Positions 27,635 through 59,838 of a stretch of 64,000 bases of DNA are shown here, piece by piece. The stretch covers positions 128,001-192,000 of the forward strand of contig CBDBHR010000029.1 in assembly GCA_965205865.1 (NCBI GenBank). The letters run 5' to 3'. This DNA is from a bacterium (GTDB lineage: Bacteria > SAR324 > NAC60-12). The notes under the pieces were generated by a model that saw only the letters and a program-made list of their open reading frames with translations, was not told the origin of the DNA and ran no database searches. Both the position numbers and the translations under genes were made by a program. How positions within the stretch are numbered: position 1 is the first letter of the stretch; the number at the start of each line of letters is the position of its first letter.

Positions 27635-27696
27635 GTTATAGGTGTCTTCCCTCTATCAAGTGGTTTCACAGGTTTAAATGGACAGATAGAGTTTTT

Positions 27697-30644: not shown

Positions 30645-30680
30645 CTTTTTCCTTTTGAATGGATGTTCAAGATTAAGGAT

Positions 30681-30844: not shown

Positions 30845-31119
30845 ACATTGGGTCTCCTTCATTTTGGAGTGATCAAAAAACCAATTCATTGGCTCCAGGA
30901 TGGGGCAATGAACCATAAACCGACGCACTCAGGCGCCGATGATTTTCCAAATTCCCCATTGCTGTTTCGTTCCCAGAACGGGGAACGAGAGATCTTAAGG
31001 ATCTCTCCCTGATGTCGAGATAAGATAAGGGGGTAGAACTTGGGATTGGGAATTCGTTGCTTGGGGCTTTTGACTTAGAGCTTGAGAGTGGAAACTGGAA
31101 ACAAGGAACTGATAACTTA

Positions 31120-36329: not shown

Positions 36330-36343
36330 TTTCGGTTTTCGCA

Positions 36344-37456
36344 ATGAATAAATTGGATAGGCTTTCTCCGATGAAAACACGCTTTCCGCTTCCCAAATTG
36401 AAAAACGACTTGTTGTTGCGTGTGATCAACCACCTTCCGGTGGAACGGGTACCGGTCTGGATGATGCGTCAGGCCGGACGAACCGACCCCCTATACCGGA
36501 AAATTCGGGAAACAGACAGCCGCCCTTTGGAAATTCTCTTTCGGGATGTGTCGCGTGCTGTTGAAATTTCACTGTTGCCTCAACGGCTTGGAGTAGATGC
36601 AATTATCATGTTTCAAGATATCTTGACACCCTTGATCCCCATGGGTGCCAGATTTTATTTTCAACCAGGACCTATCTTGGATAAACCAATACGAAACAAA
36701 TCGCAAATTTTAGCCTTGAGACACCTGGATCCTCCTCGCGACGTGCCTTTTGTTGGTACGCTCATCCGGGGAATAACTCGGCATTTGCAGCAGGCGCTAC
36801 CCATTCTGGGTTTTTCCGGATCTCCCACCACCCTGGCCTTTTTTATGTGTGCGGGAAAGAGTCCGGGAAAAAACTATAGCACGATCTTTCGATTCATAGA
36901 AGAACAGCCAGCTGTTTTTCAACAATTGTTAGAGGTGCTCACAACGATGACCATCGACTATCTCAATTATCAAATTGAATGCGGAGTCCACGCGGTGCAA
37001 TTGTTTGAATCCTTTGGCGACGTAATTCCACGAAAAATTTATGAAGAATTTGTTCAACCCACCCACGAACGTATTTTTTCAGAACTGCATTCACGAGTTC
37101 CGTCCATTCTCTTTGTCAAGGAAAGTGAATATCTGGATTTGATGCTAAAAAGCGGGGCTAAGGTGTTGAGTGTCGGAAGAGTCATCAATCTGAAGAATGC
37201 CCTGCAGACAGCACCCGGCGACGTTGTTTTTCAAGGGAATGTGGACAACCGCGTGCTCTTGGAAGGAGACCACGATGCAATCACAAAGGCCGTGCAAACA
37301 TGCTATGAGCAAACGGGGAAACAGCGATTGATTCTCAACTTAAACCATGGCTTGCTGGCTGACACGCCATTTGAAAATGTGCGACATTTCGTCCGGGTTG
37401 CTCATTCGTATGGCAAGATCAACGATCCTGTACTTGATCCAACAGCAAAACTTTGA
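36344..37456 (+). CDS. hemE: Uroporphyrinogen decarboxylase
   Basis: PVWMMRQAGR, DAIIMFQDIL, QGNVD and LNLNHG. Confidence 0.93.
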   Translation: MNKLDRLSPMKTRFPLPKLKNDLLLRVINHLPVERVPVWMMRQAGRTDPLYRKIRETDSRPLEILFRDVSRAVEISLLPQRLGVDAIIMFQDILTPLIPMGARFYFQPGPILDKPIRNKSQILALRHLDPPRDVPFVGTLIRGITRHLQQALPILGFSGSPTTLAFFMCAGKSPGKNYSTIFRFIEEQPAVFQQLLEVLTTMTIDYLNYQIECGVHAVQLFESFGDVIPRKIYEEFVQPTHERIFSELHSRVPSILFVKESEYLDLMLKSGAKVLSVGRVINLKNALQTAPGDVVFQGNVDNRVLLEGDHDAITKAVQTCYEQTGKQRLILNLNHGLLADTPFENVRHFVRVAHSYGKINDPVLDPTAKL

Positions 37457-39680: not shown

Positions 39681-40439
39681 TCAAATACCGTCCTCACGCA
39701 GCTTCACAAGATCATCATCCGGACCGTAACGGTGGATTTCCAGACGAAGCGAGAAAGATGCCACCTGCTCGGCCGGGATGTGGGCCAGGCGGAATGGAAA
39801 GATGCTCGGACCGTCGAGCAAGTCCGTTATGGCGGCCGAACCGTTCGCACGGGCGTGGAGAGACGCCTCCACCAGCCAGGCAATGAGACGGGGTTGCTCG
39901 AGCGGGTATTGATCCCCTTGGGCATAGACGCCTCTTTTACGCGTATCGTTCAAAACGCCCCAATCTATGAATGATCGCAGAACGCGTTGGGTGGCCCGAG
40001 ATGCGGTTTCCCGCTCTCCGTATTGTTCCTTGACCCGTCGCTGAACCTGCGACGCCTTGGCTGTTCCCTGAAGCCGCAAGAGCCTGCCGGCGTACAGGGC
40101 GACCGCACCCCAAAAGGGGTAGGCCGCCTGCGTCATGCCCCAGTGAACGGCAATTCGGTCTCTACGAGGAAGTCCCCGCAATATTTCCAAACCATCGTCC
40201 CGCAGTTTCTCCAATTCGTGAGGGACGGTGAGCCAGGTCTTCAACAGGATGGTAATTACTTTTTCCCTGTTGCACCTGCCGGACTCACTACCGACTGAAA
40301 TTTTATCTCGCAACAGATCCCGGAGTGATTCGCTGATGATGAGCCTGTTGTTTCCGGCAAGTATCAGATTGACTGTCTGTTCGAACCACTCGAGTCGGAC
40401 TCGCTGGCTGAAGCCGATCCGAGTATCCCGTCTGTTCAC
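39681..40439 (-). CDS. brxA: BREX type 3 BrxA-like protein
   Basis: GTG start overlapping the pglZ stop, with an AGGAGG RBS; IGFSQRVRLEW, HWGM...AYPFW and YGERET; last gene after pglZ. Confidence 0.7.
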   Translation of the reverse strand: MNRRDTRIGFSQRVRLEWFEQTVNLILAGNNRLIISESLRDLLRDKISVGSESGRCNREKVITILLKTWLTVPHELEKLRDDGLEILRGLPRRDRIAVHWGMTQAAYPFWGAVALYAGRLLRLQGTAKASQVQRRVKEQYGERETASRATQRVLRSFIDWGVLNDTRKRGVYAQGDQYPLEQPRLIAWLVEASLHARANGSAAITDLLDGPSIFPFRLAHIPAEQVASFSLRLEIHRYGPDDDLVKLREDGI

Positions 40440-42442
40440 GTGTTCCTCCTTTCTACCTGAACCAGAGGGACGACGAGTTCTTCGAGAGTCGCGCCACCGT
40501 GGCCGACAAGGCGTTTGCTCGTCTGCGTAAATGCCAGGCGGCCAGGAGCCAATAGGGGCAAATAGTCTTCCGGTAGTCCAACCGTTGGCCATTCCAAAGC
40601 ATCCGGGAATCGTTTTTTGATTTGACCACGCAGTAAAGAATCGGAATAAATACGAACTCGTTCGCCGCGCAAATCCGCAACCGCCCCTTCAGCGGGACGA
40701 CCACATCCGGAGGCTTCGATATTTCCGTGATCGGAGGTCAGGCAGACATGGAATCCATTATCCAAAAGCGAATCGACGAGGCGCGCCATGAACGGCTGTC
40801 CGGCCCACTGTCGTACCTGGTTGCGCATGCCTGCTGCTCCCAGTTCCATACCGTGCATGATCTTGTCGATTTTGTCGACGACGAGTGCGACAACGCGCGT
40901 TTTGGGGCGGGTAATTATCTCCTCCACGCTACCCAAGGTACCGTCTCCCAGTCCCTTGACGTAGGCAACCTCCTGCTGTGACAACCCCTGGTCCGCCCAA
41001 AACTGCGTCCACAGAGCGGGTTCCTTGTCGGTGGTATGGATACTGTTCGGAAAGTAGATGGGTGGTTTTCCTGCAAAGGCAGCTTGTCGTGAAACGGAAG
41101 TGATTGTCGGTATCCAGGCGAAAACCGCGTTTTCACGGAATCGGACCCCCGGACGTTGTTTGACGAGTTCCTGGCGTATGACGATCCACTGGTGCAAGGC
41201 AAGGCCGTCGATCAAGACCAACGCCGCTTTGCGTCCCCCGACTTCGTTGACGTGCCGTGCGAGATGACGCGGGATGTGATGGAGCATTACCGGTGGCACC
41301 GGAGGCAGATTGATCAATCCTGCGTAGCGCTTGGCCAACCAGGGTACGAAGGCAGCATCGATTTGCGCTTGCAACGTTTCCATCTTCCGCTCGGCTGGTT
41401 CCGGCAACGTGGTTTCCGGATCCGGAACGAGAGCCACCAACTCGGCCCAGTTTCTGGCAAAGTGAAACCAGTCTTCGTGCCTCGCGTCCTCCTTGGGAAT
41501 GTTGGACTCCAAGGCGTCGAGGAGCCCATTGACGCGTCGAGTCCGGTCTGCCTGCTCGTCCGTTCGGATGCCAATGAGCAGCCAGGACTTCGACCAGGAT
41601 TCAGCCTGTTCATGGGGAACGGCTTGCAGCAGTCCTTCCAGGAACAGGTTGTCAACGTAGATACGAACGTCATCGTGGTCGAAAGGCAAATCCGAGGGAC
41701 CGGGAAGTTCAAAACCATAGACTTTCTCCTTTTCATGGACGCCCGTGCCATCCTGATTCGCCAACTGCTCGAGAAAGACGGGCCAGCGTTCCTGGAGGAA
41801 GGCGAAAAAAGCTTCCCGCTCCGGGATGATCGTTTCCAGGGGCCAATCGTCAAAACTTCCTTGTTTACGGAGAACCCCTACAAAGCGTTCATCGAGCGAA
41901 GCCGGGATTCGCTGTTCCCGGTAATGGCGACGCAGCAGCACGCGCAGCAGATCGGACGGCTTTTTGATGAGATCCGGCTCAATTTCGAAAACATGGCGCA
42001 GAATGAAATCTTTAGTCGCGTTGTCACCCAAAACAGCAGGCGTATGCCGCTGCTGCGCTTCGTAGAGCGCGTCCAGGTCTCCACGGTCGAGGGCGGTTAC
42101 AATGGGATAGCTCAGATTAGGAAATATCTCTCCAAGGTTGAAAGACAACTGGCGTCCGGCTTGCAGCAGGTCGTATGGTAAAGAACCAAGGTCACCGGCT
42201 GCGGAGCGCAGCACGACCCCCCGCTCCGTTTGCTCATCCCGGTCCCAGCGGACACGGAATGCGGACTCGTAGGCATAGCGGAATATGATATGATCCTCGA
42301 ACGGGATCAGTTCGAAACCCCGCTGCCGTATGTCGGCAAGAACGTCTTCCTCCGGAAGCAAACCGTCCGGGTCGGCAACCACGGTCAGCCGGGACTCATT
42401 GGCAGTGAACTCCCTGAGAATCGAGTCGCGCCAATTACTCAT
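40436..42442 (-). CDS. pglZ: BREX-3 PglZ alkaline-phosphatase-fold protein
   Basis: VADPDGLL, LIDGL, WIPTITSVSRQA, DKIMHG, LTSDHGN and HGGATLEE. Confidence 0.92.
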   Translation of the reverse strand: MSNWRDSILREFTANESRLTVVADPDGLLPEEDVLADIRQRGFELIPFEDHIIFRYAYESAFRVRWDRDEQTERGVVLRSAAGDLGSLPYDLLQAGRQLSFNLGEIFPNLSYPIVTALDRGDLDALYEAQQRHTPAVLGDNATKDFILRHVFEIEPDLIKKPSDLLRVLLRRHYREQRIPASLDERFVGVLRKQGSFDDWPLETIIPEREAFFAFLQERWPVFLEQLANQDGTGVHEKEKVYGFELPGPSDLPFDHDDVRIYVDNLFLEGLLQAVPHEQAESWSKSWLLIGIRTDEQADRTRRVNGLLDALESNIPKEDARHEDWFHFARNWAELVALVPDPETTLPEPAERKMETLQAQIDAAFVPWLAKRYAGLINLPPVPPVMLHHIPRHLARHVNEVGGRKAALVLIDGLALHQWIVIRQELVKQRPGVRFRENAVFAWIPTITSVSRQAAFAGKPPIYFPNSIHTTDKEPALWTQFWADQGLSQQEVAYVKGLGDGTLGSVEEIITRPKTRVVALVVDKIDKIMHGMELGAAGMRNQVRQWAGQPFMARLVDSLLDNGFHVCLTSDHGNIEASGCGRPAEGAVADLRGERVRIYSDSLLRGQIKKRFPDALEWPTVGLPEDYLPLLAPGRLAFTQTSKRLVGHGGATLEELVVPLVQVERRNT

Positions 42443-44195: not shown

Positions 44196-44383
44196 GGCAT
44201 TTTCCTCAATCTTGCGTAATCATTTTTTGCAGGTGAAATTCAGGAATTTTATGTCCGTTTTGACGGCCCGTGGAGTAGTCTGCCGCCAAGGTCATTTCAT
44301 TCACGTTGGAATCTGAACCGGATAAATTGGTTACCTTTCCTCCCTCGTGCGCATTGATCACGTGTTCGGCTCGACTCATTCTA

Positions 44384-47300: not shown

Positions 47301-49051
47301 AATCGCCTGGCGTATGCATAGTCGAAGAACGATTCGTGGAAAAAGCGATACTGATGTTTCTCCTGATCCTCCACCAGCACGTGTTCCGAAATCATTGCCT
47401 TTGCATCTTTGGCCCAGTTGTCAATAACTAACTTGGGAGCAAAGAGAACTTGCTGTTCACTCATCCTCCCAGTCAGCGCATCGATTATAAGATCCCAATG
47501 TGATTCACGCCCAAGGCGTTCCTCCAAATTCTGACGCTTTCTGTCCCAATATCCCTTATACAACTCACCCACCGAATTGAAACGACGGGTCGGATCACCT
47601 TGGAGAAAAAGGAGCAGTTGGAAGGGAATACCGAGTAATTCAAGCTGTTGCTCTGTTGGGTTGAATTGAGCTTGTCCGGCCTTGCGAAGCGATTCCAGGA
47701 TGTCGGTCTTGTCCAATTTCTCGAGCGTATGTTTCGTAAAACCGGACTGAGAATCTCCCAGCCCTCTCAGACGGTAATCGTGATTCAGGTCGAAGTCCCG
47801 GCACGCCATCATCATTTTCATATGGGGATAGGACTGCACTTCATTGAGCAATTCACCGAACACCTCCCACATCCTGGGGTTGCGACCGGAAACGAGGCTG
47901 ATGGCATCCAGTTGGTCGACAACGAGCACGCTCGATGCGTTGTCCGCGATACCAGCGAGCACAACCGCCGGTGAAGCAGGTAAATCCAACTGTTCGCCGA
48001 GTTGACGAGTTGTATTGCAAGGATCGAGAGAGTCCATTCTCAAACATATGTAGGGTGTGCCTTTAACGGAAAGTTGAGAGAGACATTGCGCCAGTATGCA
48101 ACTTTTTCCGAACCCGCCAGGCGCTACGAGCAAAGCGCCGCGCGAATCAGTATCCCAGAGTGTAACAAGAATCTGCTCAACGATATTGCGGACGATTGGA
48201 GCCGAATTAATGAGTTCAAATTCCGTTACCTCCAGATAACGTTGGTTGATCTTTTTGACGAGTTTATTGACAGATAAATCGGTCTTCCAGTCACGGTTAC
48301 CGATCCCATTGCCTTGAAGAAACTGACGAATGTGGTCAGCATTGATCCGGGCGCCAAGACGATCGAGGATGAATTCGGCGATCATTCGACGAATATCGCC
48401 CGGCTTCAAAGGAGAACCGTCCGTGCGATAGAAATGATCGGAAATTCGTTGTTCCACAGTCTGGACTAGATCATTTTCTACACGCGTAATGACTTCAAAA
48501 CTCTTTAAGGCCGAGAATGCGAATTCTTCGTCACCGTTGCAAATTGGAACGATTTTCTGATCAAATTCTTTCTGGAGCTTTGGAAGTGGATTGATTTCAT
48601 TCTGGAGCTCTGGATGCTGGTTGAATTCATTCCGGAGTTTTGGAGAAAGTCTCTTTCGGAACTCGGAAAGGTCGTTTGACGATTGCGCACGTTCGGACAG
48701 TTCGCGAAGTTCGTTCGCCCCGGTTGACGATAAGAAGCGAGTTTCCGCATTGGGATATGAATGCCGCTTATTTAATAAATCGCCAAGGATACTCCGGCCT
48801 GTCTTCTTGTCTTCACGGCAGAGGTCCGCAATCGACCAGTCTCCGCCTGGCTTTTGACGTTTGACGGAGTGGAACTGCCGCTTGTTGTCGTTGGTCTCGA
48901 GATAGAACTCGACGCCGAGCGATTCATCGTCAAAGGGTTCGACCGTAATTGCCTTGAACGTTCCTACGAATACGTCGATGACCTTGTCAACGGTCCAAAC
49001 CGCCTCATATTGGTTACTGATTTTGTTTGCTTCTCCACCTGATCGAGGCAT
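44384..49051 (-). CDS. 1555-aa STAND/NACHT-like NTPase (Avs-like) with putative N-terminal nuclease-like domain
   Basis: Walker A APGGFGKS, Walker B LVVDQLD, FFHESFFDY, long helical C-terminus; N-terminal GVEF...FHSVKRQ. Confidence 0.75.
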   Translation of the reverse strand: MPRSGGEANKISNQYEAVWTVDKVIDVFVGTFKAITVEPFDDESLGVEFYLETNDNKRQFHSVKRQKPGGDWSIADLCREDKKTGRSILGDLLNKRHSYPNAETRFLSSTGANELRELSERAQSSNDLSEFRKRLSPKLRNEFNQHPELQNEINPLPKLQKEFDQKIVPICNGDEEFAFSALKSFEVITRVENDLVQTVEQRISDHFYRTDGSPLKPGDIRRMIAEFILDRLGARINADHIRQFLQGNGIGNRDWKTDLSVNKLVKKINQRYLEVTEFELINSAPIVRNIVEQILVTLWDTDSRGALLVAPGGFGKSCILAQCLSQLSVKGTPYICLRMDSLDPCNTTRQLGEQLDLPASPAVVLAGIADNASSVLVVDQLDAISLVSGRNPRMWEVFGELLNEVQSYPHMKMMMACRDFDLNHDYRLRGLGDSQSGFTKHTLEKLDKTDILESLRKAGQAQFNPTEQQLELLGIPFQLLLFLQGDPTRRFNSVGELYKGYWDRKRQNLEERLGRESHWDLIIDALTGRMSEQQVLFAPKLVIDNWAKDAKAMISEHVLVEDQEKHQYRFFHESFFDYAYARRFCAKGDGVVDFLGSKKQQHLFRRAQVRQILAFRREEEFDQYITDVREIFESQKVRFHIMRMVASGFGQIDKPKPEDWSLAESYLLDGDLSRYIYAAMSGHVGWFDLLDSLEVYENWLASDDTRLVDIATRYLEIPELHDRRSSRIAELIAPYVGYDGDWRQRILRIMSWGKAHQSRGMTTLYLDLIAQGAYDDYVGEFSGSDFWSQYYNVKKKSPKFIIDVLATWFERVVKQFDDGKTQNFLDKCKLNHSRTGAQMIEELASKEPQYFVEKMLPRLTATVLQTEDRRGEYVKNRLWPSLSNNVAPYEIDDAILLYLRKSLQHLAKHEVELFRHYMSQIAYHPHETFSYLLLRSWADNPQEFADECAGYLLADQRRLDIGYEMWTIRGEGTGHSAISRIALRKISSHCSAKLFEQFESRIIGYCQDYEKQTPRRRGYSELLLLRSLDDSRISEKARSRIKELERKFPDLSDKIVEEEGPRLATLVESPIPKNNAEFMTDDQWISAMREYDGSTDDFRGDPADFLKGDAEQLSRLLTDFSRKERDRFASLAMKMPDDLHPYYFSAILDGLCSRFTQGEEEKKADQQKIEATPTETFLKIIDRLHSLPGRPSGSSILHCIRVLASRHLPSRILEIVSYYATSDPDPETDIWQKDAGNGTSYYSGDPYSHGINSVRGKAAQTIASLLYGDQSRIDALRPALESLSNDPVISVRTCAVDAFLPLLNFNRDLAVDLFLKTCGRSEAICATEPFSDFIHYAIHTHYAQLREIIQFTLRSENTEAVENAALQITLAELEHVDVGCDAADIRAGSETMRKAAARVYAGNLLHETVGDRCAELLREFFDDNSKSVRQEVSRVFFNIPGERLLQLKDFISGFIESKSFESGADDLLRVLEESNVELPEIICPAADRILESVDEEGTNIANRESTVALIISKLIVRQYQQTTDENVKTHCLDIIDRMEQVGFLGIGDELKKIDR

Positions 49052-49115
49052 GTGAATTACCTGCGAAATTATTGAAAATCAATCCACCATAAATTGCGCT
49101 TTGGAAACAAATCGT

Positions 49116-49308
49116 TCATTCGTCTTCTCCGCTGCGCGTCAGAGCTTGGTCGTACCACATGAGGAGTTTGGGGTCCTCCTGGAGCACGGTCTCGGGTATT
49201 TTACGGGCTGCGGTGATGATGGTGACATAGTCGCGCTCTTGCCAGGCTTTTGGAAGCCAGTTCAAATGCATCCAAGCGAAACACCTTCAGGGGTCACTGT
49301 TTGGATTC
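49116..49308 (-). pseudogene. Degenerate copy of the pglXI 3' end
   Basis: ESKQ*PLKVFRLDAF.../QERDYVTIITAARKIPETVLQEDPKLLMWYDQALTRSGEDE*, matching 57045-57240. Confidence 0.9.
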
Positions 49309-49414
49309 CAAGAATGCCTTCTTGCGGAAGAAGGCCGGCGGGGTCGGCAACCACGATCAGCCGGGCCACCTTGGCATTGAACTCCCTGAGGATCAAGTCG
49401 CGCCAGTCACTCAC
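49309..49414 (-). pseudogene. Degenerate copy of the pglZ 5' end
   Basis: GTG-SDWRDLILREFNAKVARLIVVADPAGLLPQEGIL versus PglZ MSNWRDSILREFTANESRLTVVADPDGLLPEEDVL. Confidence 0.9.
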
Positions 49415-49431
49415 GGATACCTTCCTTTGTA

Positions 49432-50685
49432 TCAATCTTCATCCCCAGGTTGCAGGCTCGCGGCAAAAAAAGTCAGTAAAAGTTCGGAATCGTCAATCAG
49501 ACGATAAACTGGTTTCTTTCCGGAAATTTTTTCACTCTCTTCTATGATGATTGGAACGCCGTCGCCTCGCTTTTCCATGTAAAAACCGCGTCCATCATCT
49601 CCCACTGTTTTCACAGGCGTTTCTGCAAACAAGCTTGTAATCAATTCGTTACGTGTTGCCTGACGCAGGGATATGCTGTCAATGGTCACCGTGTTCGGGA
49701 GAGCACCTGGCGAGTAAATTTCCAGACGATCAGCAAACATGAAAAATCGAATTTTCGAGGCAAAAATAGAGTAGTCCCGGTGAGCCACGGCATTGACAAT
49801 TGCCTCGAAGACGGCTCTTTCACTGAATTGTTTCATTTCCACTCTATGGGGCTTTTTCACGGCCGAGACCGTTTGGTTTCTCCTGAGAAAGGCCATTGCC
49901 TGTTCAACTTGCTGATTCAGCGGGCCGCGAATCTGTTGGGCGTCTCTCTGGTAATTGGAATCCTGCTTTTTCCCACGATAGCGCACTGCTTCGATATACG
50001 CGTTGGGCAAAAAGCGTTCGGGCTCCTCACAACAGAACAAAACACCGGCAACCGAAGCCCGAATGATCCCACTTTCTTCTTTCGACAATAGACCACGTTT
50101 AAGGAGCACAATGTCGGCAGGTTCGCTGTACCTGGTTGTATAGTTGGCCGATAGTTTTTCCGACAAATCGTCAATGCTTGCTTGCGGAACCGGCTGTTCC
50201 TCGAATCGAATCAAACGGGCCTGACTTCGTTGCTGGAACAATCGTGCCAGGTATTCGGGAGGCATCTGCCGTCTTGAACTTCCTTGCCGAAAGAAATATC
50301 CCCCGGAACTCCTGTGAACGAAAAGACTGCTTGGAATCTCTATTTTGATCACTGCTTGCGAAACACCGGTACTGTCTGGAACTCGCATGCGAAACGAGCG
50401 AAACAGAACAGGAGGTTGGATGTTATCGTTACAGATTTCATAGACAAAACGTTCGACAGTATCGAGGTTGTCTATAGGAATGCCGACGACGTCTCTCGTC
50501 TTATCATCCACACCCAGCACCAGCACGCCGCCATGGGAGTTGGCGAATGCTGCTAGTTCGTCGGCCAACTCATCATGCCTCGGATCGGAAACCTGGCTGC
50601 CTCTGAATCGGACTGTCTTGAGTTCCAATAAAGAGTTTTCTTCAATATGTATCTTTCGTAGCAGTTCTGCCGTACTTTCAAACAC
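49432..50685 (-). CDS. AlbA_2 + HATPase_c_4 protein, paralog of 42435..44195
   Basis: ENSLLELK, AFANSHGGVLVLGVDD, EAIVNAVAHRDY, YSPGAL and EKRGDG. Confidence 0.85.
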   Translation of the reverse strand: MFESTAELLRKIHIEENSLLELKTVRFRGSQVSDPRHDELADELAAFANSHGGVLVLGVDDKTRDVVGIPIDNLDTVERFVYEICNDNIQPPVLFRSFRMRVPDSTGVSQAVIKIEIPSSLFVHRSSGGYFFRQGSSRRQMPPEYLARLFQQRSQARLIRFEEQPVPQASIDDLSEKLSANYTTRYSEPADIVLLKRGLLSKEESGIIRASVAGVLFCCEEPERFLPNAYIEAVRYRGKKQDSNYQRDAQQIRGPLNQQVEQAMAFLRRNQTVSAVKKPHRVEMKQFSERAVFEAIVNAVAHRDYSIFASKIRFFMFADRLEIYSPGALPNTVTIDSISLRQATRNELITSLFAETPVKTVGDDGRGFYMEKRGDGVPIIIEESEKISGKKPVYRLIDDSELLLTFFAASLQPGDED

Positions 50686-50893
50686 GATGTTCCTCAAGTG
50701 CAATGCGGATATAACAATTTTAATTGAGTGGTCGTTCCTCAGACTGCTACTTAGCGACGTTCTTCCAATTCGGCGTCACAGTTGCCAAAGATGAGGGAGA
50801 TAAGTCCACCGTTTCCCGGATAAGTTCATCGAAGAGATAGACATAACGTCCGGTTGAGCCATTATGGACAAAACTTATTGCCGCGTTTTCATT

Positions 50894-52507
50894 TCAGTCT
50901 CTCAGATCCTCTAGTCTTCGGAGCCACTCCGTATTATTTACGGCAACGCGAGATTGTGCTGACGCGAAGCGGTGGGCTATGCTCTGGGCGAATTCTTGTT
51001 TCAGTTCTCCCAACCAGTCAAATCGTTTACCGCATACATCGGTGAAGATGAAACCTCCTTTTTCATCTCGCTCTGCAATGACTGGGGCTCCGTCATTTTT
51101 TGGTTTGAATTTAACCAGCTTCCATTGAGATGCTTTAATTCCAACACTGAAACGCTGAAACGTATTCTTATCTGTGCGCAGAACAAGTTGGATTATCTTC
51201 TCCTTCGGCTTGATCAACGGCAAAAGAAGGAAGGAATACTCATCATTCACCTTCAATCGTACACTGTCACATCTTGGTCTCATACAAAGAAAGTAATTTG
51301 GATCACTTGTCTCGTTCTGCTCCCGCAGGACAGTACCTAAATGTAGTATCAGACGAGGGTCATCAAAGACTGTACGGAAGCTGAACATCCAAGCCAATTT
51401 GTGATCCAGTTTGTTCTCCGGTTTGCCGTTCTTCGAAAATACGGAAGCCAATTTGTCGAAATTTTCCTTTTCCTTTTTTCTGTTTTTCAGGACACTGGGT
51501 TTCTTCTTGTCCCAACCCTCTTTTTGAAGATCAACAGCCTCGTCAAGAGACACTTGCTTGTTTTTTTCGAATATGAATTTCTTGTTCGGCCCGGCTTCTG
51601 CTTCCAGCCATTCATTGACGGCCTTCATCCCCGCCGGACTCTTCTTTGCCGTAGCATCGTCCATGATAGCGTGTAACTCGCTTGTGAGTTGATCCACCAT
51701 TTGCTGTTGTGAGTCTTCGGGAACGGGCAGACACGCCCGATGCGCGAGGAAAGCCGGGTCAAGTTCCGCATGGAATTTATCAAGGACTTTATGAACGTTC
51801 TCTCGAATGGCTGTGAGCGACGTTAAGGCGATGCTGGGAAGGAGTCCTTCGGTCATACTTGCAAAGTCTCTGATGAGTTTTTCTGGTACCTGCTCCTCCG
51901 GAACAGTCCTGTCCTTCAACCCTAATGCGAGTGATATGTCAGATTTCGCATATATTACGATACGACAATGCTGATAGCAGAGCACAACATCATGCTTATC
52001 TCTCTGAAATTTCCATTTCGATTTTTCCAATTCTTGAGCGATAGTTTGTCCGATTCCAGAGATATCCTGCTCCCCCGTGTAGATCGCGATCAAGCGGAGT
52101 TGCTCATGAGCGTTATCTTTCAGAATTTCTTTCAACATCGACATGGTCTTTCTGCCGTTGTCTACGTTCAATTGCCAGTCCAACACCACGATATCGGCCT
52201 GTTTTGCGATACGAACCACTTTGTTGTTGACCGTCGTGTCGTCGGGTCTAGGCGCAATTACGCCACAGATCAACCCATGCCTGGCGAAGGAGTCTACAAG
52301 AACCCGCGCATCAAGACTGTGACGACCTGGCAAGTCGATTCCCTCCGTTTTTTCCGTATTTCCATCCAATGTATGTCGATCTGGTGTAACAAGAGAATGG
52401 TTTGCAGGCGGTGCACCATCAATTCGCGCCTCGTCGTCCACGATAACAGCAGTTTGGAGAAAACGCTTAGCGATTTCCATACAATGTTGGCTGAAGTCAC
52501 TCACCAT
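50894..52507 (-). CDS. Atypical response-regulator receiver-domain protein with large uncharacterised C-terminus
   Basis: AVIVDDE, VVLDW and IYTG; C-terminal LCMRPRCDSVR; overlaps the kinase stop. Confidence 0.8.
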   Translation of the reverse strand: MVSDFSQHCMEIAKRFLQTAVIVDDEARIDGAPPANHSLVTPDRHTLDGNTEKTEGIDLPGRHSLDARVLVDSFARHGLICGVIAPRPDDTTVNNKVVRIAKQADIVVLDWQLNVDNGRKTMSMLKEILKDNAHEQLRLIAIYTGEQDISGIGQTIAQELEKSKWKFQRDKHDVVLCYQHCRIVIYAKSDISLALGLKDRTVPEEQVPEKLIRDFASMTEGLLPSIALTSLTAIRENVHKVLDKFHAELDPAFLAHRACLPVPEDSQQQMVDQLTSELHAIMDDATAKKSPAGMKAVNEWLEAEAGPNKKFIFEKNKQVSLDEAVDLQKEGWDKKKPSVLKNRKKEKENFDKLASVFSKNGKPENKLDHKLAWMFSFRTVFDDPRLILHLGTVLREQNETSDPNYFLCMRPRCDSVRLKVNDEYSFLLLPLIKPKEKIIQLVLRTDKNTFQRFSVGIKASQWKLVKFKPKNDGAPVIAERDEKGGFIFTDVCGKRFDWLGELKQEFAQSIAHRFASAQSRVAVNNTEWLRRLEDLRD

Positions 52508-55472
52508 TGTTTTCCTCTTCTGTATGTGTTTGAATAGGTCGGATGACGAACGTAGTCCCTTTAGCGTCCTTGTCGTCTTTGAGGGTCAAATCGTAGCCCA
52601 CCCGACGAAGCACTTCGCGGGAAATGTGTAATCCCATTCCTCGGCCCCCTGGTTTTCTTGTAAATCCGAACTCAAAGATCGTTTCACGATCCCTCGTTAC
52701 TACTCCCGGACCAGTATCGGAAACCAGAAAGATTTGGTCCCTCGCATCAAGTTCAATCTGTCGTTCCTTGGATGGGTGTTGTTGCGAAAGCCAGTAGACC
52801 GCATTATCAACGAGATTGACGAAAACCGGATAGAAGGACGAAGGATATCCCGTTATTTTTATCTTGGAGAACGACTCTGTTTGTACGAACTCGATGTGGT
52901 GACGCGTGAATCTTTCTCGAAAAAGATCGTTGAGAAATGCATGAATCTCGAAACCGCGAATATCCACGGCCTTGCGATAGAGTCTTCTGTGGAGTGGCGT
53001 AAATAGCGTCAGATACCCGTCCAAGTGGTCAAAACTGGCACGAATATTATGGTAGAGTCCTTCGAGATCTTTATTGATGTCAGCCCATGCCTTCAGTCTT
53101 CGCAGGTTATTACGAATAGAACGAACCGTGGCATTGAATTCATGATTGATGATCTCTACCGCCATGCCGAGCTGAGCCAATTGCAAGTCGGCCTCGGCTT
53201 CCTCTTCAAGTAAGACGTTTCGCTGCTCGACTGCCACGAGTTGATCAAGCGCTGATGTCTCGCCGCTCAAGTCGATCGCTTCAAGTTGTCCAAGAAGCGA
53301 TTCAAGCAAGCCGGATCTATCTTCAGCAACCTGCAGGATTCGCAATTCCAAAACGTCCCGTGTCCTCACGAAATCCTCATCTGTCAGTTCGGACACGTCA
53401 GTCCGCTGAAATTCACTGACAACAGCACGTAGCTCCGCTTCCACCTCGCCGATGCATACTCTGGCGACATCGTGAACTTCCGTGGCTATTTTGTCCGCTT
53501 TTTGCACAACTGTCGTTCCTCTGTCCCTTGTTTTATGCCTGGCCTGCTTCGCCAAATCATCCAACGTGGTTTCTACTCGCAGCCTCCGGTCAATCTCTAT
53601 GCGGGCTTTTGCGGCTTCATCCTCAACAAGGTCTTCGATTAGTTCGCGTGTCTGCCGGAATACGCTCTTCGTGAGTCTCGAGAACTCTGCGGTGTAGTCA
53701 CTCCATTCTTTCTGCATCGCTTTGTTCAAGGCTATTCTGGGACGCGTAATCCTGTAGCGGGACTCGAGCTTCTGTAGCTCCACACGAGCATGTTGCTCTA
53801 CTTGAATGATTTCCAGTGCAGCCTGTTGAGAATCAGCAATACGGCACGCACGCCCGAGTTTCTCGGAAACGTCCTGGCTCAATTGGAGTGATTCCTCTTC
53901 CGGAGCACCGGAAGACACCTGGTTGAAGAACCAATTAAGATCCTTCGCCAGTTTGTCTTTCTTCTCAGAAACCAACTTCTCCCGTCGTCGCCGGTCCAAT
54001 TCTATCTTCTCAAGCTCTGCCTTCTGTTTTTTAAATCTCTCACCGTGCACACCTTCTGTTCGGAAAAAATCCGCGGCCATTTGCAGAAAAAATTGTTTCA
54101 GGATGCTCTTAAACTGGCGATATGCCCTATTTTCTCGGAATCCTTCTCGCCCGGCTTTTTCGCTTAGATCGCGATTATTTTCATTATCAATCTCGACGAC
54201 TCCAAACATTTTTCGGTGAGAAAAGTAGTAATAAGAAGCGCCCTTTGTTCTGTTAAACTCTATATCTAGCCAGTCATAGTCCGTGTCACCATACGGCAGG
54301 ATGCGCACACCATTCCGGTAGATGTACAGACCTCCATTCTTTCCCATCTTTTGAGTCATGCGAACGTGATCTTCCGGGGGAATGGCGGAATGCAATCCTT
54401 CTCCCTCAATTGCTGCAACATTGATCGCAAAGGGGCCGCAATCCGTCCGGTTTCCTCCAGCTCCCTGCCACGGAATCACGTGACCATCATTGGCTTCGCC
54501 GTATATCGACACTTCGCCTTCGAATTGGCCATACTCGTCGAAACGCCCTCTTATTTGATGATCAGCGTTTAGAAATTCTTCAGGCGTGAAAAACTCTCCT
54601 TCGGCAATCAGGTCCTCAGCGGTCTCATCGGTTTTATGGTCTCTGAAAGCTGTTTGGATAACAGGAGGTGAATGGTCCGGTGTCATCGTGTTCGTGAAGC
54701 CCAACAGGGCCTTCGTCATCGGTGTTGCCTTGTTGAATCCCGGCTCGCCGTCTATGTCTATGGGAAGAAGATCGGAACTCGGCAAAATGATGAAGTAGGT
54801 TCCACTTCCCGTGCCACACAGCGTAGGACCGTCAAGATAAGAGTCGATGTCTTGGGGATTGACCCTGAACTGCTCGAGTTCTTCGTTAAGACGAGCGTAG
54901 AAATTATCTCCTATTACGGTTTTGAGGTGCTCATTGTTCTTGTCGAACTCCGCAACCATCTGTGACACTTCCTCCCCTGAAGGTAGTTCCCCGCCAGGAA
55001 AGGTACGAATGGAAATCCGGATATCTTCGAGATCCACTCCCGGACATTCAAAGAGGCTCCAGTTAACGAATGCTGCGGTCAAATCAGACAAAGATCCCTC
55101 GCGTCTGGCGCGAGTGAGCACGAGAACCTGGGGACCGATCGTTGCGATCGCCAGACGACCAATTCCCTTTTCGCCCAGCATGGGCCGCGATTCCTTGTTG
55201 GGATCTTTCTGTGGTGTTTCCAACCCGACGGCAGTGAGCTTGCTTTCGGTGCCGATAGTGAGCCATCGACGGACAAAGTCCTCTTCAGTCATTCCCATGC
55301 CATCGTCGCGCAATACGAACAGGCTATCGGTACGATAGTAATCGATTTCGACGTGTTCCGCATAAGCATCGTGGGCGTTCTTGAACAATTCGCTGATTGC
55401 AGTAGGAATCCCTGCAATCTGTTGCCGTCCAAGCATGTCCAGAGTTCTTGCGCGCGTCTTGAATGTCTCCAT
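52497..55472 (-). CDS. MORC/MutL-like GHKL ATPase fused via a coiled coil to a histidine kinase
   Basis: N-terminal ELFKNAHDA, DDGMGM, GEKGIGRLA; C-terminal IINHEF, NLVDNA, DTGPG, FEFGFTRK, GRGMGL. Confidence 0.85.
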   Translation of the reverse strand: METFKTRARTLDMLGRQQIAGIPTAISELFKNAHDAYAEHVEIDYYRTDSLFVLRDDGMGMTEEDFVRRWLTIGTESKLTAVGLETPQKDPNKESRPMLGEKGIGRLAIATIGPQVLVLTRARREGSLSDLTAAFVNWSLFECPGVDLEDIRISIRTFPGGELPSGEEVSQMVAEFDKNNEHLKTVIGDNFYARLNEELEQFRVNPQDIDSYLDGPTLCGTGSGTYFIILPSSDLLPIDIDGEPGFNKATPMTKALLGFTNTMTPDHSPPVIQTAFRDHKTDETAEDLIAEGEFFTPEEFLNADHQIRGRFDEYGQFEGEVSIYGEANDGHVIPWQGAGGNRTDCGPFAINVAAIEGEGLHSAIPPEDHVRMTQKMGKNGGLYIYRNGVRILPYGDTDYDWLDIEFNRTKGASYYYFSHRKMFGVVEIDNENNRDLSEKAGREGFRENRAYRQFKSILKQFFLQMAADFFRTEGVHGERFKKQKAELEKIELDRRRREKLVSEKKDKLAKDLNWFFNQVSSGAPEEESLQLSQDVSEKLGRACRIADSQQAALEIIQVEQHARVELQKLESRYRITRPRIALNKAMQKEWSDYTAEFSRLTKSVFRQTRELIEDLVEDEAAKARIEIDRRLRVETTLDDLAKQARHKTRDRGTTVVQKADKIATEVHDVARVCIGEVEAELRAVVSEFQRTDVSELTDEDFVRTRDVLELRILQVAEDRSGLLESLLGQLEAIDLSGETSALDQLVAVEQRNVLLEEEAEADLQLAQLGMAVEIINHEFNATVRSIRNNLRRLKAWADINKDLEGLYHNIRASFDHLDGYLTLFTPLHRRLYRKAVDIRGFEIHAFLNDLFRERFTRHHIEFVQTESFSKIKITGYPSSFYPVFVNLVDNAVYWLSQQHPSKERQIELDARDQIFLVSDTGPGVVTRDRETIFEFGFTRKPGGRGMGLHISREVLRRVGYDLTLKDDKDAKGTTFVIRPIQTHTEEENNGE

Positions 55473-55473
55473 C

Positions 55474-56535
55474 TTAAGTATATGCTCGTATTTCTTTCAG
55501 GTGTTCGGTGACGTGCTGCCCGATGATCTTTGCCAGTCTTACGGGTACGGCATTGCCGATCTGCCGAGCCATTGAGGTGAGGCTTCCCTCAAAAAGAAAA
55601 TCATGCGGGAACGTCTGCAGACACGCCGCTTCGCGTACGCTTATGGCTCTGTCCTGTTCCGGATGTCCGAAACGGCCATTGGAGTAGCTGATACATCGCG
55701 TCGTCAACCCGGAGGCGGGTCGATCCCAAGACATACGGCCGTAAACGTCACTGTACCCCGGAGTTTTCTTATGACACTCAAGTCGAAGTCGTTTCGGCCA
55801 ATCCCCGTGACCACCGCCTTCTGGCGTTGCTCGCACTCGTTCCATGTTATGTTTTGATAATCCTGCAGCACGATGATTCGGAACAGTCGCGTCTTCCTCA
55901 CCGGCGGCGATGGGTGGTAGATCTTCAATCCAATTCCTCACAGTTTCGTAGTTTAGTTTTGTTGTTTCGGGTCCGTTCGTCTCCGGTGGCAGTTCAATGG
56001 GTCCATGGAGACTTGCCAGAAGCACAAGTCGACAGCGACTCTGAGGGACGCCATACTTCATGAGTGACACTCGCTTGTATGCAACATAATAGCCGGCGTT
56101 TTTGAGGCTTTGAAGAAATCCGCCGAACGGCTGAGTGTGGTGGTTCAACTTCTGGAGACCTGGCACGTTCTCGACAAACACGATATCCGGCTTGCAAACA
56201 TTGACAAGCTTAGCGAAATAATAAAGAAGTGGCACCCGATCGTCCTCTTCTCGTGCGGGACGCATGGTATTCTGCTTTGTAAACGGCTGACATGGTGCGC
56301 ATCCGCAGAACAGAATGGGATTCGGTCTCTGAGCAGCTAGAAGCGAACTAACGTGACTGACCGATGTTTCACAGATATCCGCGAGTTCGAAGTGGACGGA
56401 AGGAAAATTTATTTGGAAAGTGCGTTGTGAGTCCGGGTCGCAATCGAGCGCGAAAACGATTTCCATCCCGGCATCACGAAATCCGCAACTCGCTCCGCCA
56501 CAACCGGAGAAAAAATCGAATACCTTGACGTTCAT
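55474..56535 (-). CDS. dcm: C5-cytosine DNA methyltransferase
   Basis: DFFSGCGG, APCQPF, ENVPG, QSRCR, REAACLQTFP and QIGNAVP. Confidence 0.93.
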   Translation of the reverse strand: MNVKVFDFFSGCGGASCGFRDAGMEIVFALDCDPDSQRTFQINFPSVHFELADICETSVSHVSSLLAAQRPNPILFCGCAPCQPFTKQNTMRPAREEDDRVPLLYYFAKLVNVCKPDIVFVENVPGLQKLNHHTQPFGGFLQSLKNAGYYVAYKRVSLMKYGVPQSRCRLVLLASLHGPIELPPETNGPETTKLNYETVRNWIEDLPPIAAGEEDATVPNHRAAGLSKHNMERVRATPEGGGHGDWPKRLRLECHKKTPGYSDVYGRMSWDRPASGLTTRCISYSNGRFGHPEQDRAISVREAACLQTFPHDFLFEGSLTSMARQIGNAVPVRLAKIIGQHVTEHLKEIRAYT

Positions 56536-56969
56536 ACTCTCACTTTCCCTTGGCAAAGATTTTCTTCGAAGAAACGACGTATTTTCCCTGCGAGCCGATT
56601 TTGGTCTCTTGTCTCGCACTCCCATATTATCATTACCCCCCAGCCAGCCTCCCGGAGAGCAGTGGTGTTTTGCTGATCACGTTCCATGTTTCGTGACAGC
56701 TTCTGTTCCCAAAAAGCGCTGTTCGTTGCGGGGCGTTTTGCTTTCGCGCAATGCCTGTGCCCGTGCCAGAAACAACCGTGTACGAAAATTACTTTCCCGT
56801 ATAGTGGGAACACCAAGTCAGGTTTGCCAGGTAGCCCCTTCCTATATAACCGGAAGCGATAACCCAGGCTGTGGGTTACTTGTCGTACCAGAAGCTCTGG
56901 CTTTGTTCCTGTCGTGCGTATGCGCGCCATGATTTCGCTACGCTTCTCACGACTGTATATATCATTCAT
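56532..56969 (-). CDS. vsr: Very-short-patch repair endonuclease
   Basis: RSEIMARI, TKPE, LPGKPD, FVHGCFWHGH and IWECE. Confidence 0.95.
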   Translation of the reverse strand: MNDIYSREKRSEIMARIRTTGTKPELLVRQVTHSLGYRFRLYRKGLPGKPDLVFPLYGKVIFVHGCFWHGHRHCAKAKRPATNSAFWEQKLSRNMERDQQNTTALREAGWGVMIIWECETRDQNRLAGKIRRFFEENLCQGKVRV

Positions 56970-57044
56970 AAGATGAACTCAATAACAATGGATCAACTCG
57001 CATAAGGTAATCACCGTCTTAAACTGCGTTTGGAAACCGATCGT

Positions 57045-59838
57045 TCATTCTTCCTTCCCGCTGCGCGTGAGGGCTTGGTCGTACCACATGAGGAGTTTGG
57101 GGTCTTCCTGGAGGATGGATTCGGGTATCTTGCGGGCTGCGGCGATGATAGTGGCGTAGTCACGTTCCTGCCAGGCTTTTTTGAACCCGGTCCGGAAGGC
57201 TTCCAAACGGAATACCTTCAGGCGTCTTTGTTTCGATGTACGGTATTGCTCGAATTCTTTCAGCAAAGCGCGTTCCCGGAGTTGCTCGAGGTCACCCGCT
57301 TTGTTCGGGTCGGGCACGTACCAGCGGTTCTTGGCCTTGACCCTGAGCGTACGGGTCGTCCTTTGTCCGGTTGCGCAACTCCTTGAAGTTCGAGGAAAGG
57401 TAGCTGTGAACCTGACTGGGCACCTGACCCATGCCGTCATAGCGCAGGAAATTCTGCTCGAGCAGTAAAGAAAGCTCCAAAATCTTTTCATGCTTTTGCC
57501 AGCCGCCGATCTCTTTGAGGAACTGTGGGTGAATGTCCTGGAAGGTCTGAGGCTTTTTAGTGAGTTGCTGCTTGAGCCATTGGATGGCTGAAGCCTCGTC
57601 GGAAACATAAAGCTGAAGTTGAAGAACCTCCTTGACCGTCATGCGCTTCTTGTCGTATTCGGCTGCTTGTTCCGGCAAGAAAAACATGCTGTCACGTGAC
57701 GGGAAACGTTGTTCCAGACCTGCATAAAATTCGGAGGCGGACAGAGGAACCATCACGCCGCGCTGGACGTGGAAGGCCACCATGCGGTCAAAGAGCAGGT
57801 AGTTCTGGCGCTCGGCAATGACCTCGACTTGACCATTGTTGGAAATAAATACGGGGAGCTGTCTCAGATGCGTGCGGACGAAATCCCAGGTACCTTCCTC
57901 AGTTCCGGCGGTAAGTTTGAAGCGGTCTTCAAGACCACCGTTGGGCTTATACGCCGAGATGATAAGGTCTTGCTTTACAGCCCCACCAGATGTGACCTGC
58001 TTAAACGTTCCAGCTTGTTTGTCAAGCGTTCGCACATCGGCAATCACCAGACCAGCGTGCTGTAAAGCTTCTTGAATGCAGTTCCAAACGCTGTTTTTTG
58101 AGTTGTGAAACTCCACGGTCATCCATCGACCGGGCTTAAGAACACGGTAATATTCTTTAAAACTATCCGTCATCAGCGCTTGGTACTGTAAAAGGCCTTT
58201 ATCTTGATGTTTTGATTCAATTGCCTCTTGATTACGTTGTGTTACGACTTGCAGCCACTCCTCCCACAGAACATTGAGCTCTGCATACGCAAGATTGCCA
58301 CCGAACGGCGGATCAGTAAATACGTAGTCGCAGCTTGCATTGGCCATGATCATGCGAGTCGTGGAATGGCATTCTATTACATTTCTTGACCGCAGTTGCT
58401 CATAAGCAGCCACAAAACGACGCAATTTATTACTGTATGCAACAAATATATTAGGTTCCGATATCTGTGAACCGACATACAGGGTGCCACTAAGTGGGTT
58501 GTATGGGAATGATACACCCGGTCTGTAACGGTTCAAGCGGGATACATTGACCAGTTGGCTCGTAAAAAGAAGCATTGTTTGGGGCCAGTCTTTGAAACGC
58601 TCTCTTAAAGCGGCCAGTATCCAAATACTGCGTCGAGTGTATAAATGATGTACATGCGTAATGCCAATGATATCGTTTCTACGGGTTTCTCCTCCCTCAA
58701 AGAGCCTATTCGTTGGCAACCAGTAAGAAAGATCGCTTTGCTCGATCGTCTCGATCAGCGCCAAGTCTTTGTTATCAGGCCTCTTCTCATACCGCTTCTT
58801 GTCTACACTATAGTTAATGAGTACTGGAATCTGCTTGGTCTGCCGAATAGTCTGGTTACTGGCCTTATCGAACTTGGTTACCCAAGCCCGGTCCATACGC
58901 CGCTTAGTAAGTGATGCATTGCAATCGGGACAAGAAAATTTTTTCGATACCCTTCCGGTCTCTTTATCAACAGCCGCTTCCCAGAAAACCACCTCGTCAG
59001 TACATTCCGGACAGACGAATACATCTGACCAAACTGTGTAGTTGATTATTCCAACACATCCATCGGAATGCCTGGTTTCATACATCCAACCGCACTCGTC
59101 CTCGACCTCCTTCAAGATGCGCTTCGCTTTACTTTCGAAGGACTTCACATCTACAGGTGAATTATAGTTGTAGGCGATAAATGTCGCGGCGGGTGAGAGG
59201 TCGTTTAGAATAGCTAGGCGCGGTCCGAACATGGAGAAGGGCATCCAGTTCATTTTCCCGTTTTCACCCGTTTCCTGCTGATAAATCGTTCCGTCCTTGC
59301 CCACAAGGTAGTCAAGAGATTCAATAATTGCCTTGTCACCACAAAATTGTGCCGCCACGCCTGTCATCCCTGTCCCGCAGAAACCGTCGAAAACCACGTC
59401 ACCTGGCTCGGTGTAATGGAGAATGTACCGCATGATGGCCTTGTGCGGCACCTTGGTGTGGTAGGAGTGGGCGTTGTAGATAGGATCATTCTTTCCTTCA
59501 CTCACATCCGACGCGAATGGTTCCCGGTGGTAGTTGTCGGTAGCCGGGTCATAGGGCTTGCCGTAGTGCTCGATGAAATCCTCGATGAAAGGATTGGGAC
59601 AAGCCGTGTAATACGGTGGATCGGACAAGGCCAGGATATCCTCGTCTTCGCCAATGGGAAATCCCTCGATCTTGCGGAACTCCGGGTCCTTGAGTTTCTC
59701 GCGAAGCTTATCCAGGAAATATTCCTGGCGCATCTCATCGTTCTGGAAGGTCATTCCGAGGCAAGTCACCGGTTCCTGCAACATGGCTTCGGCTTCTTCC
59801 GGAAATAAGGACATGTTGTCTTCATTATTTGTCGCCAT
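57045..59838 (-). CDS. pglXI: BREX-3 amino-methyltransferase (PglXI-like), +1 frameshift near 57351
   Basis: HSYHTKVP, FDGFCGTGMTG, CPEC...CPDC and FTDPPF; the tail WYVPDPNKAGDLE...LLMWYD is in the adjacent frame. Confidence 0.8.

Follow-up and report, generated by a model that had tools for sequence, protein, structure and literature searches.

Within a 64,000-nucleotide stretch of a SAR324 bacterium (lineage NAC60-12; contig CBDBHR010000029.1 of assembly GCA_965205865.1, positions 128,001 to 192,000; hereafter the window), four tightly coupled genes on the minus strand between positions 50894 and 56969 encode a Vsr protein, a C5 cytosine methylase (Dcm), a soluble histidine kinase of 991 amino acids (aa) and a 537-aa Response_reg_2 protein. 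We give an even chance to the reading that this cassette is a methylation-guarded phosphorelay resembling the defence system Detocs, with the long tail of the receiver protein as its effector. The gene family is already described: Bellieny-Rabelo, Pretorius & Moleleki (2021; PMC8011034) defined both signalling domains (PF19191 and PF19192) and their linkage to C5 methylases, Vsr and restriction-modification (R-M) genes. A preliminary description of this DNA, made from the sequence alone, therefore overstated the novelty of the system, for which Detocs is also a precedent. What is new here are the data from 57 related loci.

The four overlapping or abutting genes of that description were found again with the same coordinates, open reading frames (ORFs) and junctions. 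The longest dcm ORF (383 aa) begins at 56625, and an in-frame ATG at 56535, overlapped by the vsr stop codon (ATGA) and preceded by the Shine-Dalgarno-like sequence GGGAAAGTGAGAG, gives a protein of 353 aa, the common length among homologues. A single nucleotide separates the dcm stop codon from the ATG of the kinase gene, which in turn shares 11 nt with the receiver gene. These junctions indicate that the four genes form one translationally coupled operon. Promoter and terminator scans from 50500 to 57400 gave no excess over shuffled sequences (9 versus 5.5±1.9 and 9 versus 7.7±2.5, respectively).

The related loci come from a pattern-plus-tblastn scan with one genome per species and span at least ten bacterial phyla plus one archaeon, their source taxa being Gammaproteobacteria, Alphaproteobacteria, Nitrospirota, Acidobacteriota, Latescibacterota, Verrucomicrobiota, Spirochaetia, Cyanobacteria, Bacteroidota, Actinomycetota, Planctomycetota, Myxococcota, Campylobacterota and one Methanosarcina metagenome-assembled genome (MAG). 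Dcm, kinase and receiver form a conserved core found at 55 of the 57 loci, accompanied by Vsr at 35 and without it at 20, and the kinase and receiver stand alone only in L046, at a contig end, and in L017 (see below). The methylase is an obligate companion of the pair. Vsr is encoded upstream of dcm in most loci and downstream of the receiver in L052, L054 and L056. The cassette was absent as a DNA match from complete E. coli genomes, and plasmids gave two distant matches, one unannotated and the other a remnant truncated by IS5 in a Pseudomonas syringae plasmid. In this remnant (L059; pPsy0479a, 7745–9268) the kinase is cut to an 82-aa "ATP-binding protein" beside the IS5 transposase, and the receiver is truncated and split. 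The Methanosarcina MAG (L052, 5884–12102) carries a full cassette at 31–47% identity, which points to cross-domain transfer if the binning is right.

A neighbourhood survey for a usual fifth gene, proposed with the preliminary description, found none that recurs. The 423 ORFs that flank the cassettes within 5 kb were clustered, and a representative of every cluster present in at least three loci was annotated; this yielded HsdM (16 loci), HsdS (12), HsdR (9) and an MmeI/Eco57I-like enzyme (5), followed, with three loci each, by an HsdR-like protein with an S24 peptidase domain, a helicase, a 143-aa protein and a long N6/N4 methylase. Among the 108 nearest-neighbour ORFs there were 11 HsdS and three N6/N4 methylases, and nuclease families account for only four (HsdR twice, HNH in L007 and GmrSD in L057), many of the others being housekeeping (e.g., htpG, cysS, purH) or mobile-element genes. 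In this clade no fifth gene and no dedicated nuclease recurs, and the cassette can stand alone. The condition under which the preliminary reading of the cassette would have failed, that homologous operons always carry a nuclease gene simply lost here, can be discarded for the clade. As the sequence had suggested, none of the four cassette proteins of the window matched a restriction endonuclease or HNH family in Pfam, PADLOC or NCBIfam; the cassette does include a nicking endonuclease, Vsr. The cassette inserts into other defence operons, BREX (bacteriophage exclusion) in the window and type I R-M elsewhere, and is self-contained and horizontally mobile.

The kinase contains three Pfam domains, all over their cut-offs: HATPase_c_3 at the N-terminus (1e-14, 54.8 bits), HEF_HK (1e-30, 106.2 bits) and a C-terminal HATPase_c (3e-18, 66.6 bits). 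We aligned 52 kinases, that of the window and 51 from related loci, and took invariant columns from an alignment of 46 sequences. The N-terminal GHKL motifs E28/N32/D35, DDGxGM (56–61) and GEKGIGRL (100–107) are kept at 95% or more, as are the H box (H777-E-F) and, in the kinase core, the N box (884–894), G1 (D919xGxG), the F box (933–940) and G2 (942–948). Within DDGxGM, D56, G58 and G60 are conserved, D56 being invariant, and D57 and M61 are near-invariant or invariant; I775, H777, E778 and F779 are all invariant. In searches of PDB sequences, the dimerisation/phospho-acceptor (DHp) and catalytic regions match ZraS, HK853 and WalK. Neither the kinase nor the receiver has a membrane segment, the best 19-residue Kyte-Doolittle mean being 1.18. 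The earlier picture of a protein with two GHKL folds, intact boxes and no transmembrane sensor is in this way borne out. Its "MORC" label fares less well: the N-terminal domain shares HATPase_c_3 membership and intact GHKL ATP-binding motifs with MORC and paraMORC ATPases, but the name is loose, and a profile search against solved structures gave only non-significant Hsp90-type matches (E at least 0.016). The domain is similar to the start of restriction enzymes of the BbrUII/HgiDII family (NF050001, 1e-19, profile positions 8–117 of 659), at 70 bits, far below the model cut-off of 550, and also the REase_II models of PADLOC. Further along the protein, the conserved blocks 380–395 and 438–445 are compatible with the S5-fold transducer and the MORC-specific motif that such ATPases carry behind the GHKL domain. 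After H777, conservation in the 52 kinases is confined to H-E-F, and the HEF_HK family is without the H+4 Thr/Asn that is linked to phosphatase activity (preprint 10.64898/2026.02.27.708494), which would fit a one-way trigger that is not readily reset. A predicted complex of kinase residues 1–480 with Dcm, modelled with the methylase as a possible specificity subunit, scored 0.00 and speaks neither for nor against binding.

The receiver domain matches Response_reg_2 at 7e-39 (134.3 bits, cut-off 27), and full-length models find the receiver (REC) domains of LvrB and PorX in Foldseek searches. The pocket residues D24, D25, D110, T144 and K188, among them the acidic pair, the phospho-acceptor Asp and the Thr noticed at the outset, are invariant in 57 sequences, as is D105; across 57 receivers and 52 kinases the His-Asp chemistry is intact and conserved at the motif level. 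The long C-terminus that had also been remarked upon is a constant part of the protein: 732 receiver homologues reach E≤1e-3, and the alignments listed span ~99% of the length. Because it is conserved family-wide along its whole length, the tail would be the natural effector candidate.

No family in Pfam, NCBIfam or PADLOC matched residues 191–537 of the window receiver, and the tails of all 57 members gave neither a Pfam family at E≤10 nor any helix-turn-helix (HTH) or other DNA-binding family among them; neither a DNA-binding nor an enzymatic output domain of the kinds recognised in two-component systems could be identified there. An AlphaFold2 model built with the 57 sequences (pLDDT 81.4, pTM 0.78) places after the receiver domain a helical domain and then a beta-domain of about eight strands closed by a helix, and a model of the tail alone gives the same architecture. 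Invariant polar residues of the helical domain are R235, D250, H256 and E277 (63 sequences), and the domain has no credible fold or family match. In the beta-domain G391, C408, C413, R417, F488 and W498 are invariant (54 sequences), and in the SEWLRR-type motif near the C-terminus E527 and R530 are invariant in the same set, with W528 and L529 nearly so. This motif lies within a low-confidence segment of the model (519–537) and may be a docking peptide for a partner.

The structure search proposed for this C-terminus yielded one lead. In Foldseek searches of the PDB, the consistent matches of the beta-domain are MazF toxins of E. coli, M. tuberculosis, B. subtilis, D. radiodurans and S. aureus, with probability ~1.0, template modelling (TM) scores by target of 0.50–0.64 and nearly the whole toxin covered, and among viral models (BFVD) the credible matches are again PemK/MazF-like phage proteins, none below 1e-3. 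The only match under 1e-3, to ASK1, has a TM score of 0.19 and is not credible. We regard the tail as a family-specific two-domain module, take the MazF/PemK-like fold of the modelled beta-domain as a weak lead and do not claim homology to MazF. Other searches were silent: a tail profile against PDB sequences matched only HisF (E=2.2), and the ESM Atlas returned unnamed clusters or the family itself for residues 385–537 and 195–385 (scores ≤0.90). The beta-domain profile recovers 1478 clusters (50% identity) at E≤1e-3 among 1.84 billion representatives, and in the best 150 of these the domain is always C-terminal, or nearly so, within a protein, or fragment, of the same type; other architectures were not seen among these 150, and distant forms may lie among the weaker matches. 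Several further assignments of the tail were considered and rejected. HEPN proteins have the spacing R-x4-6-H, whereas the conserved R235 and H239 of the helical domain are spaced R-x3-H, and no fold match accompanies them. The resemblance to PH or DH-PH domains reaches a Foldseek probability of at most 0.23, and a PD-(D/E)xK reading of D...E501-x-K503 falls on a strand-helix junction without a nuclease fold match.

Of the two remaining proteins, Vsr matches PF03852 (2e-29) and TIGR00632 (3e-42, above cut-off), and the methylase matches DNA_methylase (PF00145) at 1e-53. Among 46 Dcm sequences the PCQ (C82), ENV, QxRxR and GNAV motifs are invariant and the target-recognition region is likewise conserved; the target motif appears to be fixed across the family.

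The ways in which these genes are inherited and lost also bear on their function. Identities to the window proteins co-vary among Dcm, kinase and receiver (Spearman 0.84, 0.78 and 0.67), with medians of 66% for Dcm, 61% for the kinase and 42% for the receiver; the three proteins travel together and the receiver evolves fastest. dcm is present in 48 of the 49 loci with a single-ORF kinase and receiver. At L033, L037, L041 and L043 the kinase or receiver is broken by insertion sequences (IS) or frameshifts and dcm is intact, as in L037, where an IS3-type element (DDE or rve transposase; 8030–9040) sits in the kinase, or L041, with a DDE transposase in the receiver (11025–12146). L003 likewise has a split receiver, and its dcm, in one ORF, spans only 0.85 of the query. 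Just two loci lack a functional Dcm, and in both the kinase is damaged: in L017 tandem integrases and an HTH gene (1884–7106) replace dcm and the first ~14 kinase codons, and in L035 a transposase interrupts dcm (4186–6003), with the kinase in three pieces and the receiver in two. This asymmetry of decay fits a toxic arm that the methylase restrains.

Taking these observations together, we favour an R-M-like system in which a cytoplasmic His-Asp phosphorelay would replace the nuclease gene as the "restriction" arm. Dcm would mark host DNA at a family-fixed motif, and Vsr, where present, would repair the T:G mismatches arising from 5-methylcytosine deamination, that is, the mutational cost of marking. 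The 991-aa protein would act as sensor by engaging DNA through its N-terminal GHKL ATPase, a type of module also found at the head of HgiDII/BbrUII-type restriction enzymes and paraMORCs, and via a long helical linker this engagement would lead the C-terminal kinase core to autophosphorylate at H777. The phosphate would then pass from H777 to D110 of the receiver and free the two-domain tail as the effector, most likely a nucleic-acid toxin that stops the infected cell or the invader; the toxin is proposed because of the MazF/PemK-like fold of the beta-domain. The defensive character of the model is supported by the precedents of Detocs and of GHKL-nuclease fusions (VcSduA). A more specific version, possible but doubtful, is a methylation-gated abortive-infection two-component system, in which the GHKL ATPase reads methylation, the phosphorelay unleashes a toxin of MazF-like fold and the whole spreads via defence operons.

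Several points weigh against this model. We found no recognisable sequence-specific or methyl-sensing DNA-binding domain in the kinase or the receiver, which makes the methylation read-out its weakest step. The MazF matches are weak (E about 4e-3 to 7e-2, root-mean-square deviation 5–7 Å, identity 7–14%), none of the credible MazF/PemK matches across PDB and BFVD falls under E 3.9e-3, the beta-domain profile aligned with hhalign against a 30-sequence MazF alignment at a probability of 0.8%, PF02452 matched 0 of the 57 members even at E≤10, and the MazF catalytic residues could not be superposed on the tail. Shared descent would by itself make the identities co-vary, and the decay pattern involves small numbers, in which some "broken" genes of long-read MAGs could be assembly errors, the secure breaks being those caused by inserted elements (L017, L035, L037 and L041). 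The loci were retrieved via two peptide motifs of one clade and are a biased sample of the family, and for other clades the 2021 paper reports seven genera whose receiver-like genes have HNH_2 and other nuclease genes in their vicinity (PMC8011034), so some relatives may use a separate nuclease. Our literature search found no functional work on the pair, the 2021 bioinformatic description being its only account.

We find it rather unlikely that the pair is an ordinary regulatory two-component system, in which the kinase would sense the level of nucleoside triphosphates or the state of the DNA and a DNA-binding tail would tune transcription of dcm-vsr or of R-M or BREX genes. Kinase and receiver chemistry are typical, no catalytic signature can be recognised in the tail, DNA-binding domains form the C-terminal part of many response regulators, as the Detocs preprint recalls (10.1101/2023.01.24.525353), and the 2021 authors themselves propose signalling that controls R-M systems (PMC8011034). 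However, the host loci vary so widely (BREX, type I R-M, MmeI-like, housekeeping) that the sole constant target would be the cassette's own dcm, the 57 tails lack DNA-binding families, their fold neighbours are toxins and not regulators, and the decay asymmetry would not be expected of a harmless regulator. That same asymmetry would also be produced by a selfish addiction module, in which loss of the cassette dilutes methylation and the kinase-receiver arm kills, with no dedicated antiviral role. R-M systems act in this way, as the discussion of PMC8011034 points out, and the cassette is mobile across phyla and reaches one archaeon; even so, such behaviour is compatible with defence, the placement in defence operons and islands argues for selection via immunity, and the kinase and receiver proteins would need to outlast methylation. 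We consider addiction by itself quite improbable.

An adaptor role, with the phosphorylated tail recruiting or activating a nuclease encoded elsewhere (type I HsdR, the BREX machinery, HNH or Vsr), is in our opinion unlikely. It would account for the repeated insertion in ATP-dependent restriction operons, where 10 of the 108 nearest-neighbour ORFs are an HsdS gene directly upstream and HsdR is nearby at nine loci, for the HNH_2 genes of the seven genera (PMC8011034) and for the invariant, low-confidence C-terminal motif, which could be the docking peptide. Many cassettes, though, have no restriction gene within 5 kb, partners would vary by host and yet the tail is conserved, and Vsr is missing from 22 of the 57 loci. 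The persistence of kinase and receiver at these 22 loci also makes very improbable a role in DNA repair or epigenetic maintenance, in which a MutL-like GHKL protein would assist Vsr at T:G mismatches and report damage via the phosphorelay. In its favour, E. coli Vsr is stimulated by MutL, the window encodes Vsr together with Dcm and Iyer et al. (2008; PMC2292703) draw a MutL-Vsr parallel for (para)MORCs; against this, what the N-terminal ATPase resembles most is the N-terminus of a restriction enzyme and not MutL, and the conserved 340-residue tail would be left unexplained.

Table 1. Position of the cassette genes, and of the protein domains they encode, in the window.
Feature	Position	Strand	Evidence or remark
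vsr, very-short-patch repair nicking endonuclease, 145 aa	56532..56969	-	PF03852, TIGR00632
dcm, C5 cytosine DNA methyltransferase, 353 aa	55474..56535	-	PF00145; longest ORF 56625..55474, 383 aa
Soluble hybrid GHKL-ATPase/histidine kinase, 991 aa ("HK-like" of PMC8011034, group 1)	52497..55472	-	Pfam domains
Kinase N-terminal GHKL ATPase domain, residues 24–132, putative sensor/motor	55077..55403	-	HATPase_c_3
HEF_HK dimerisation/phospho-acceptor domain, residues 767–833, with H777	52974..53174	-	PF19191
Kinase catalytic ATP-binding domain, residues 879–979	52536..52838	-	PF02518
Receiver protein with long conserved tail, 537 aa ("RR-like" of PMC8011034)	50894..52507	-	PF19192
Receiver domain, residues 16–190, phospho-acceptor D110	51938..52462	-	Invariant pocket, Foldseek REC matches
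Tail domain 1, helical, residues 195–376	51380..51925	-	AlphaFold2 secondary structure
Tail domain 2, beta-barrel plus helix, residues 390–518, MazF/PemK-like fold (weak; MazF of five species at E 4.7e-3 to 7e-2)	50954..51340	-	Foldseek
C-terminal SEWLRR-type motif, residues 526–532	50912..50932	-	Conservation

In the window the cassette lies between PglXI and PglZ, with BREX genes on both sides. The BREX-type locus (40436–63966) comprises BrxC/PglY DUF6079, which runs off the window, DUF1828/PDC-M24B, PglXI and PglZ, and its inserts sit between the last two; no BrxHII-type helicase was recognised in it, and a 303-aa ORF after PglZ (40592..39681) has no Pfam match. PglXI is split (57045–59838, minus strand): an 848-aa ORF (59838..57292) covers positions 4–821 of the 919 in the PADLOC profile and the last ~100 codons are in another frame (57608..57045, profile 815–918). 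The frameshift, near 57350–57370, is not at an obvious homopolymer; it may be genuine, in which case BREX methylation would be disabled, or else an error of sequencing. A second insert (42435–50703) adjoins the cassette and consists of a 1555-aa protein flanked by two AlbA_2+HATPase_c_4 genes (423 and 586 aa). The large protein has Avs2/PDC-M54A-like NTPase matches and a weak N-terminal Cap4/LmuA-like nuclease match (25.7 bits, just below the Pfam cut-off), and from these similarities the insert looks like a separate defence unit; no homologue of the 1555-aa protein was found at any of the 57 loci. The preliminary description had named the receiver tail or the downstream AlbA protein as the possible effector, and of these only the tail, conserved over its whole length, is kept as a candidate: an AlbA homologue within 10 kb was found at one of the 57 loci (L013), on the opposite strand, and in the window the gene is separated from the cassette by a 190-bp gap and belongs with the separate insert. 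Elsewhere in the window there are two paralogous sets of oligopeptide-type ABC transporter genes (10570–14480 and 26669–30848; SBP_bac_5 plus two permeases each), in GC-richer stretches (0.52–0.58), and mobile-element genes at 15667–17100, 24975–26336 and 35439–36380 (an IS66 transposase, an IS200-like Y1 transposase next to a PDDEXK_2 transposase, and an IstB-like ATPase).

The family to which the cassette belongs is large, with 1478 clusters for the tail domain alone, and is spread over many phyla, and since 2021 it has been represented just by domain models and a speculative regulatory role. If the defence reading is true, the cassette would join Detocs as a second kind of defensive two-component system and be the first with a methylase as self mark, joining R-M logic to a phosphorelay and adding a new effector domain. 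Our analysis narrows the system to three or four genes, drops AlbA and a hidden nuclease from the model and singles out as key residues H777, D110, C82 of Dcm and C408, C413 and R417 of the tail.

Compared with known systems, the window is a member of the family described in PMC8011034 and nothing essential differs: both proteins are above the Pfam cut-offs, the kinase has the group-1 arrangement HATPase_c_3+HEF_HK+HATPase_c and is soluble, the genes are adjacent, and there is a C5 methylase directly upstream, Vsr nearby and an R-M neighbourhood. That paper reports the two genes linked in 91.6% of 644 regions, with a soluble kinase, a C5 methylase upstream, frequent Vsr and enriched R-M genes, proposes descent from paraMORCs and, in its treatment of the receiver tail, finds no domain and suggests a regulatory link to R-M systems (PMC8011034). 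The gene order is different, as the commonest arrangement given there has Vsr downstream of the receiver gene, whereas in our 57 loci it is mostly upstream of dcm. With the BbrUII/HgiDII m5C type II R-M systems (NF050001), often accompanied by Vsr, the cassette shares the C5 methylase, Vsr and a similar N-terminal ATPase, but the likeness ends after the ATPase, the rest of the cassette protein being a histidine kinase with no detectable nuclease domain, and the cognate restriction endonuclease gene that type II systems have beside the methylase was not found in the cassette, nor does any nuclease recur at the 57 loci. A GHKL ATPase controlling a nucleic-acid-targeting effector, encoded within R-M loci, is also the arrangement of paraMORC-effector proteins such as VcSduA (paraMORC3), a GHKL + DUF4263 Shedu nuclease whose defence against phage is reported to need both ATPase and nuclease (PMC12137116), or the paraMORC-HEPN (Ymh) fusions likened to PrrC/RloC (PMC3710099). 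In those proteins ATPase and effector share one polypeptide, whereas the cassette would interpose a kinase-receiver phosphorelay and a separate effector protein. MazF/PemK toxins are the best and only consistent fold neighbours of the tail beta-domain, which differs from them in its extra insertions and in lacking sequence or profile similarity, a Pfam match and an antitoxin gene.

Of classical two-component systems the cassette retains the His in DHp, the N, G1, F and G2 boxes and the full receiver pocket, and the closest functional parallel is Detocs, an experimentally established defensive two-component system, as presented in its preprint (10.1101/2023.01.24.525353). Detocs comprises the TPR-kinase DtcA, the stand-alone receiver DtcB and the receiver-effector DtcC, with PNP in most; mutation of the His or the Asp abolishes defence, expression of the effector domain by itself is toxic and one effector can be exchanged for another (10.1101/2023.01.24.525353). 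PADLOC gave no Detocs match to the cassette, the presence of Detocs models in the release used being unconfirmed. The cassette would follow the same logic of a kinase that leads to a receiver with a fused effector, but belongs to different Pfam families and has no TPR sensor, stand-alone buffer receiver or PNP effector; in turn, it possesses a methylase, for putative self-marking, and a GHKL ATPase as putative sensor, both of which are absent from Detocs.

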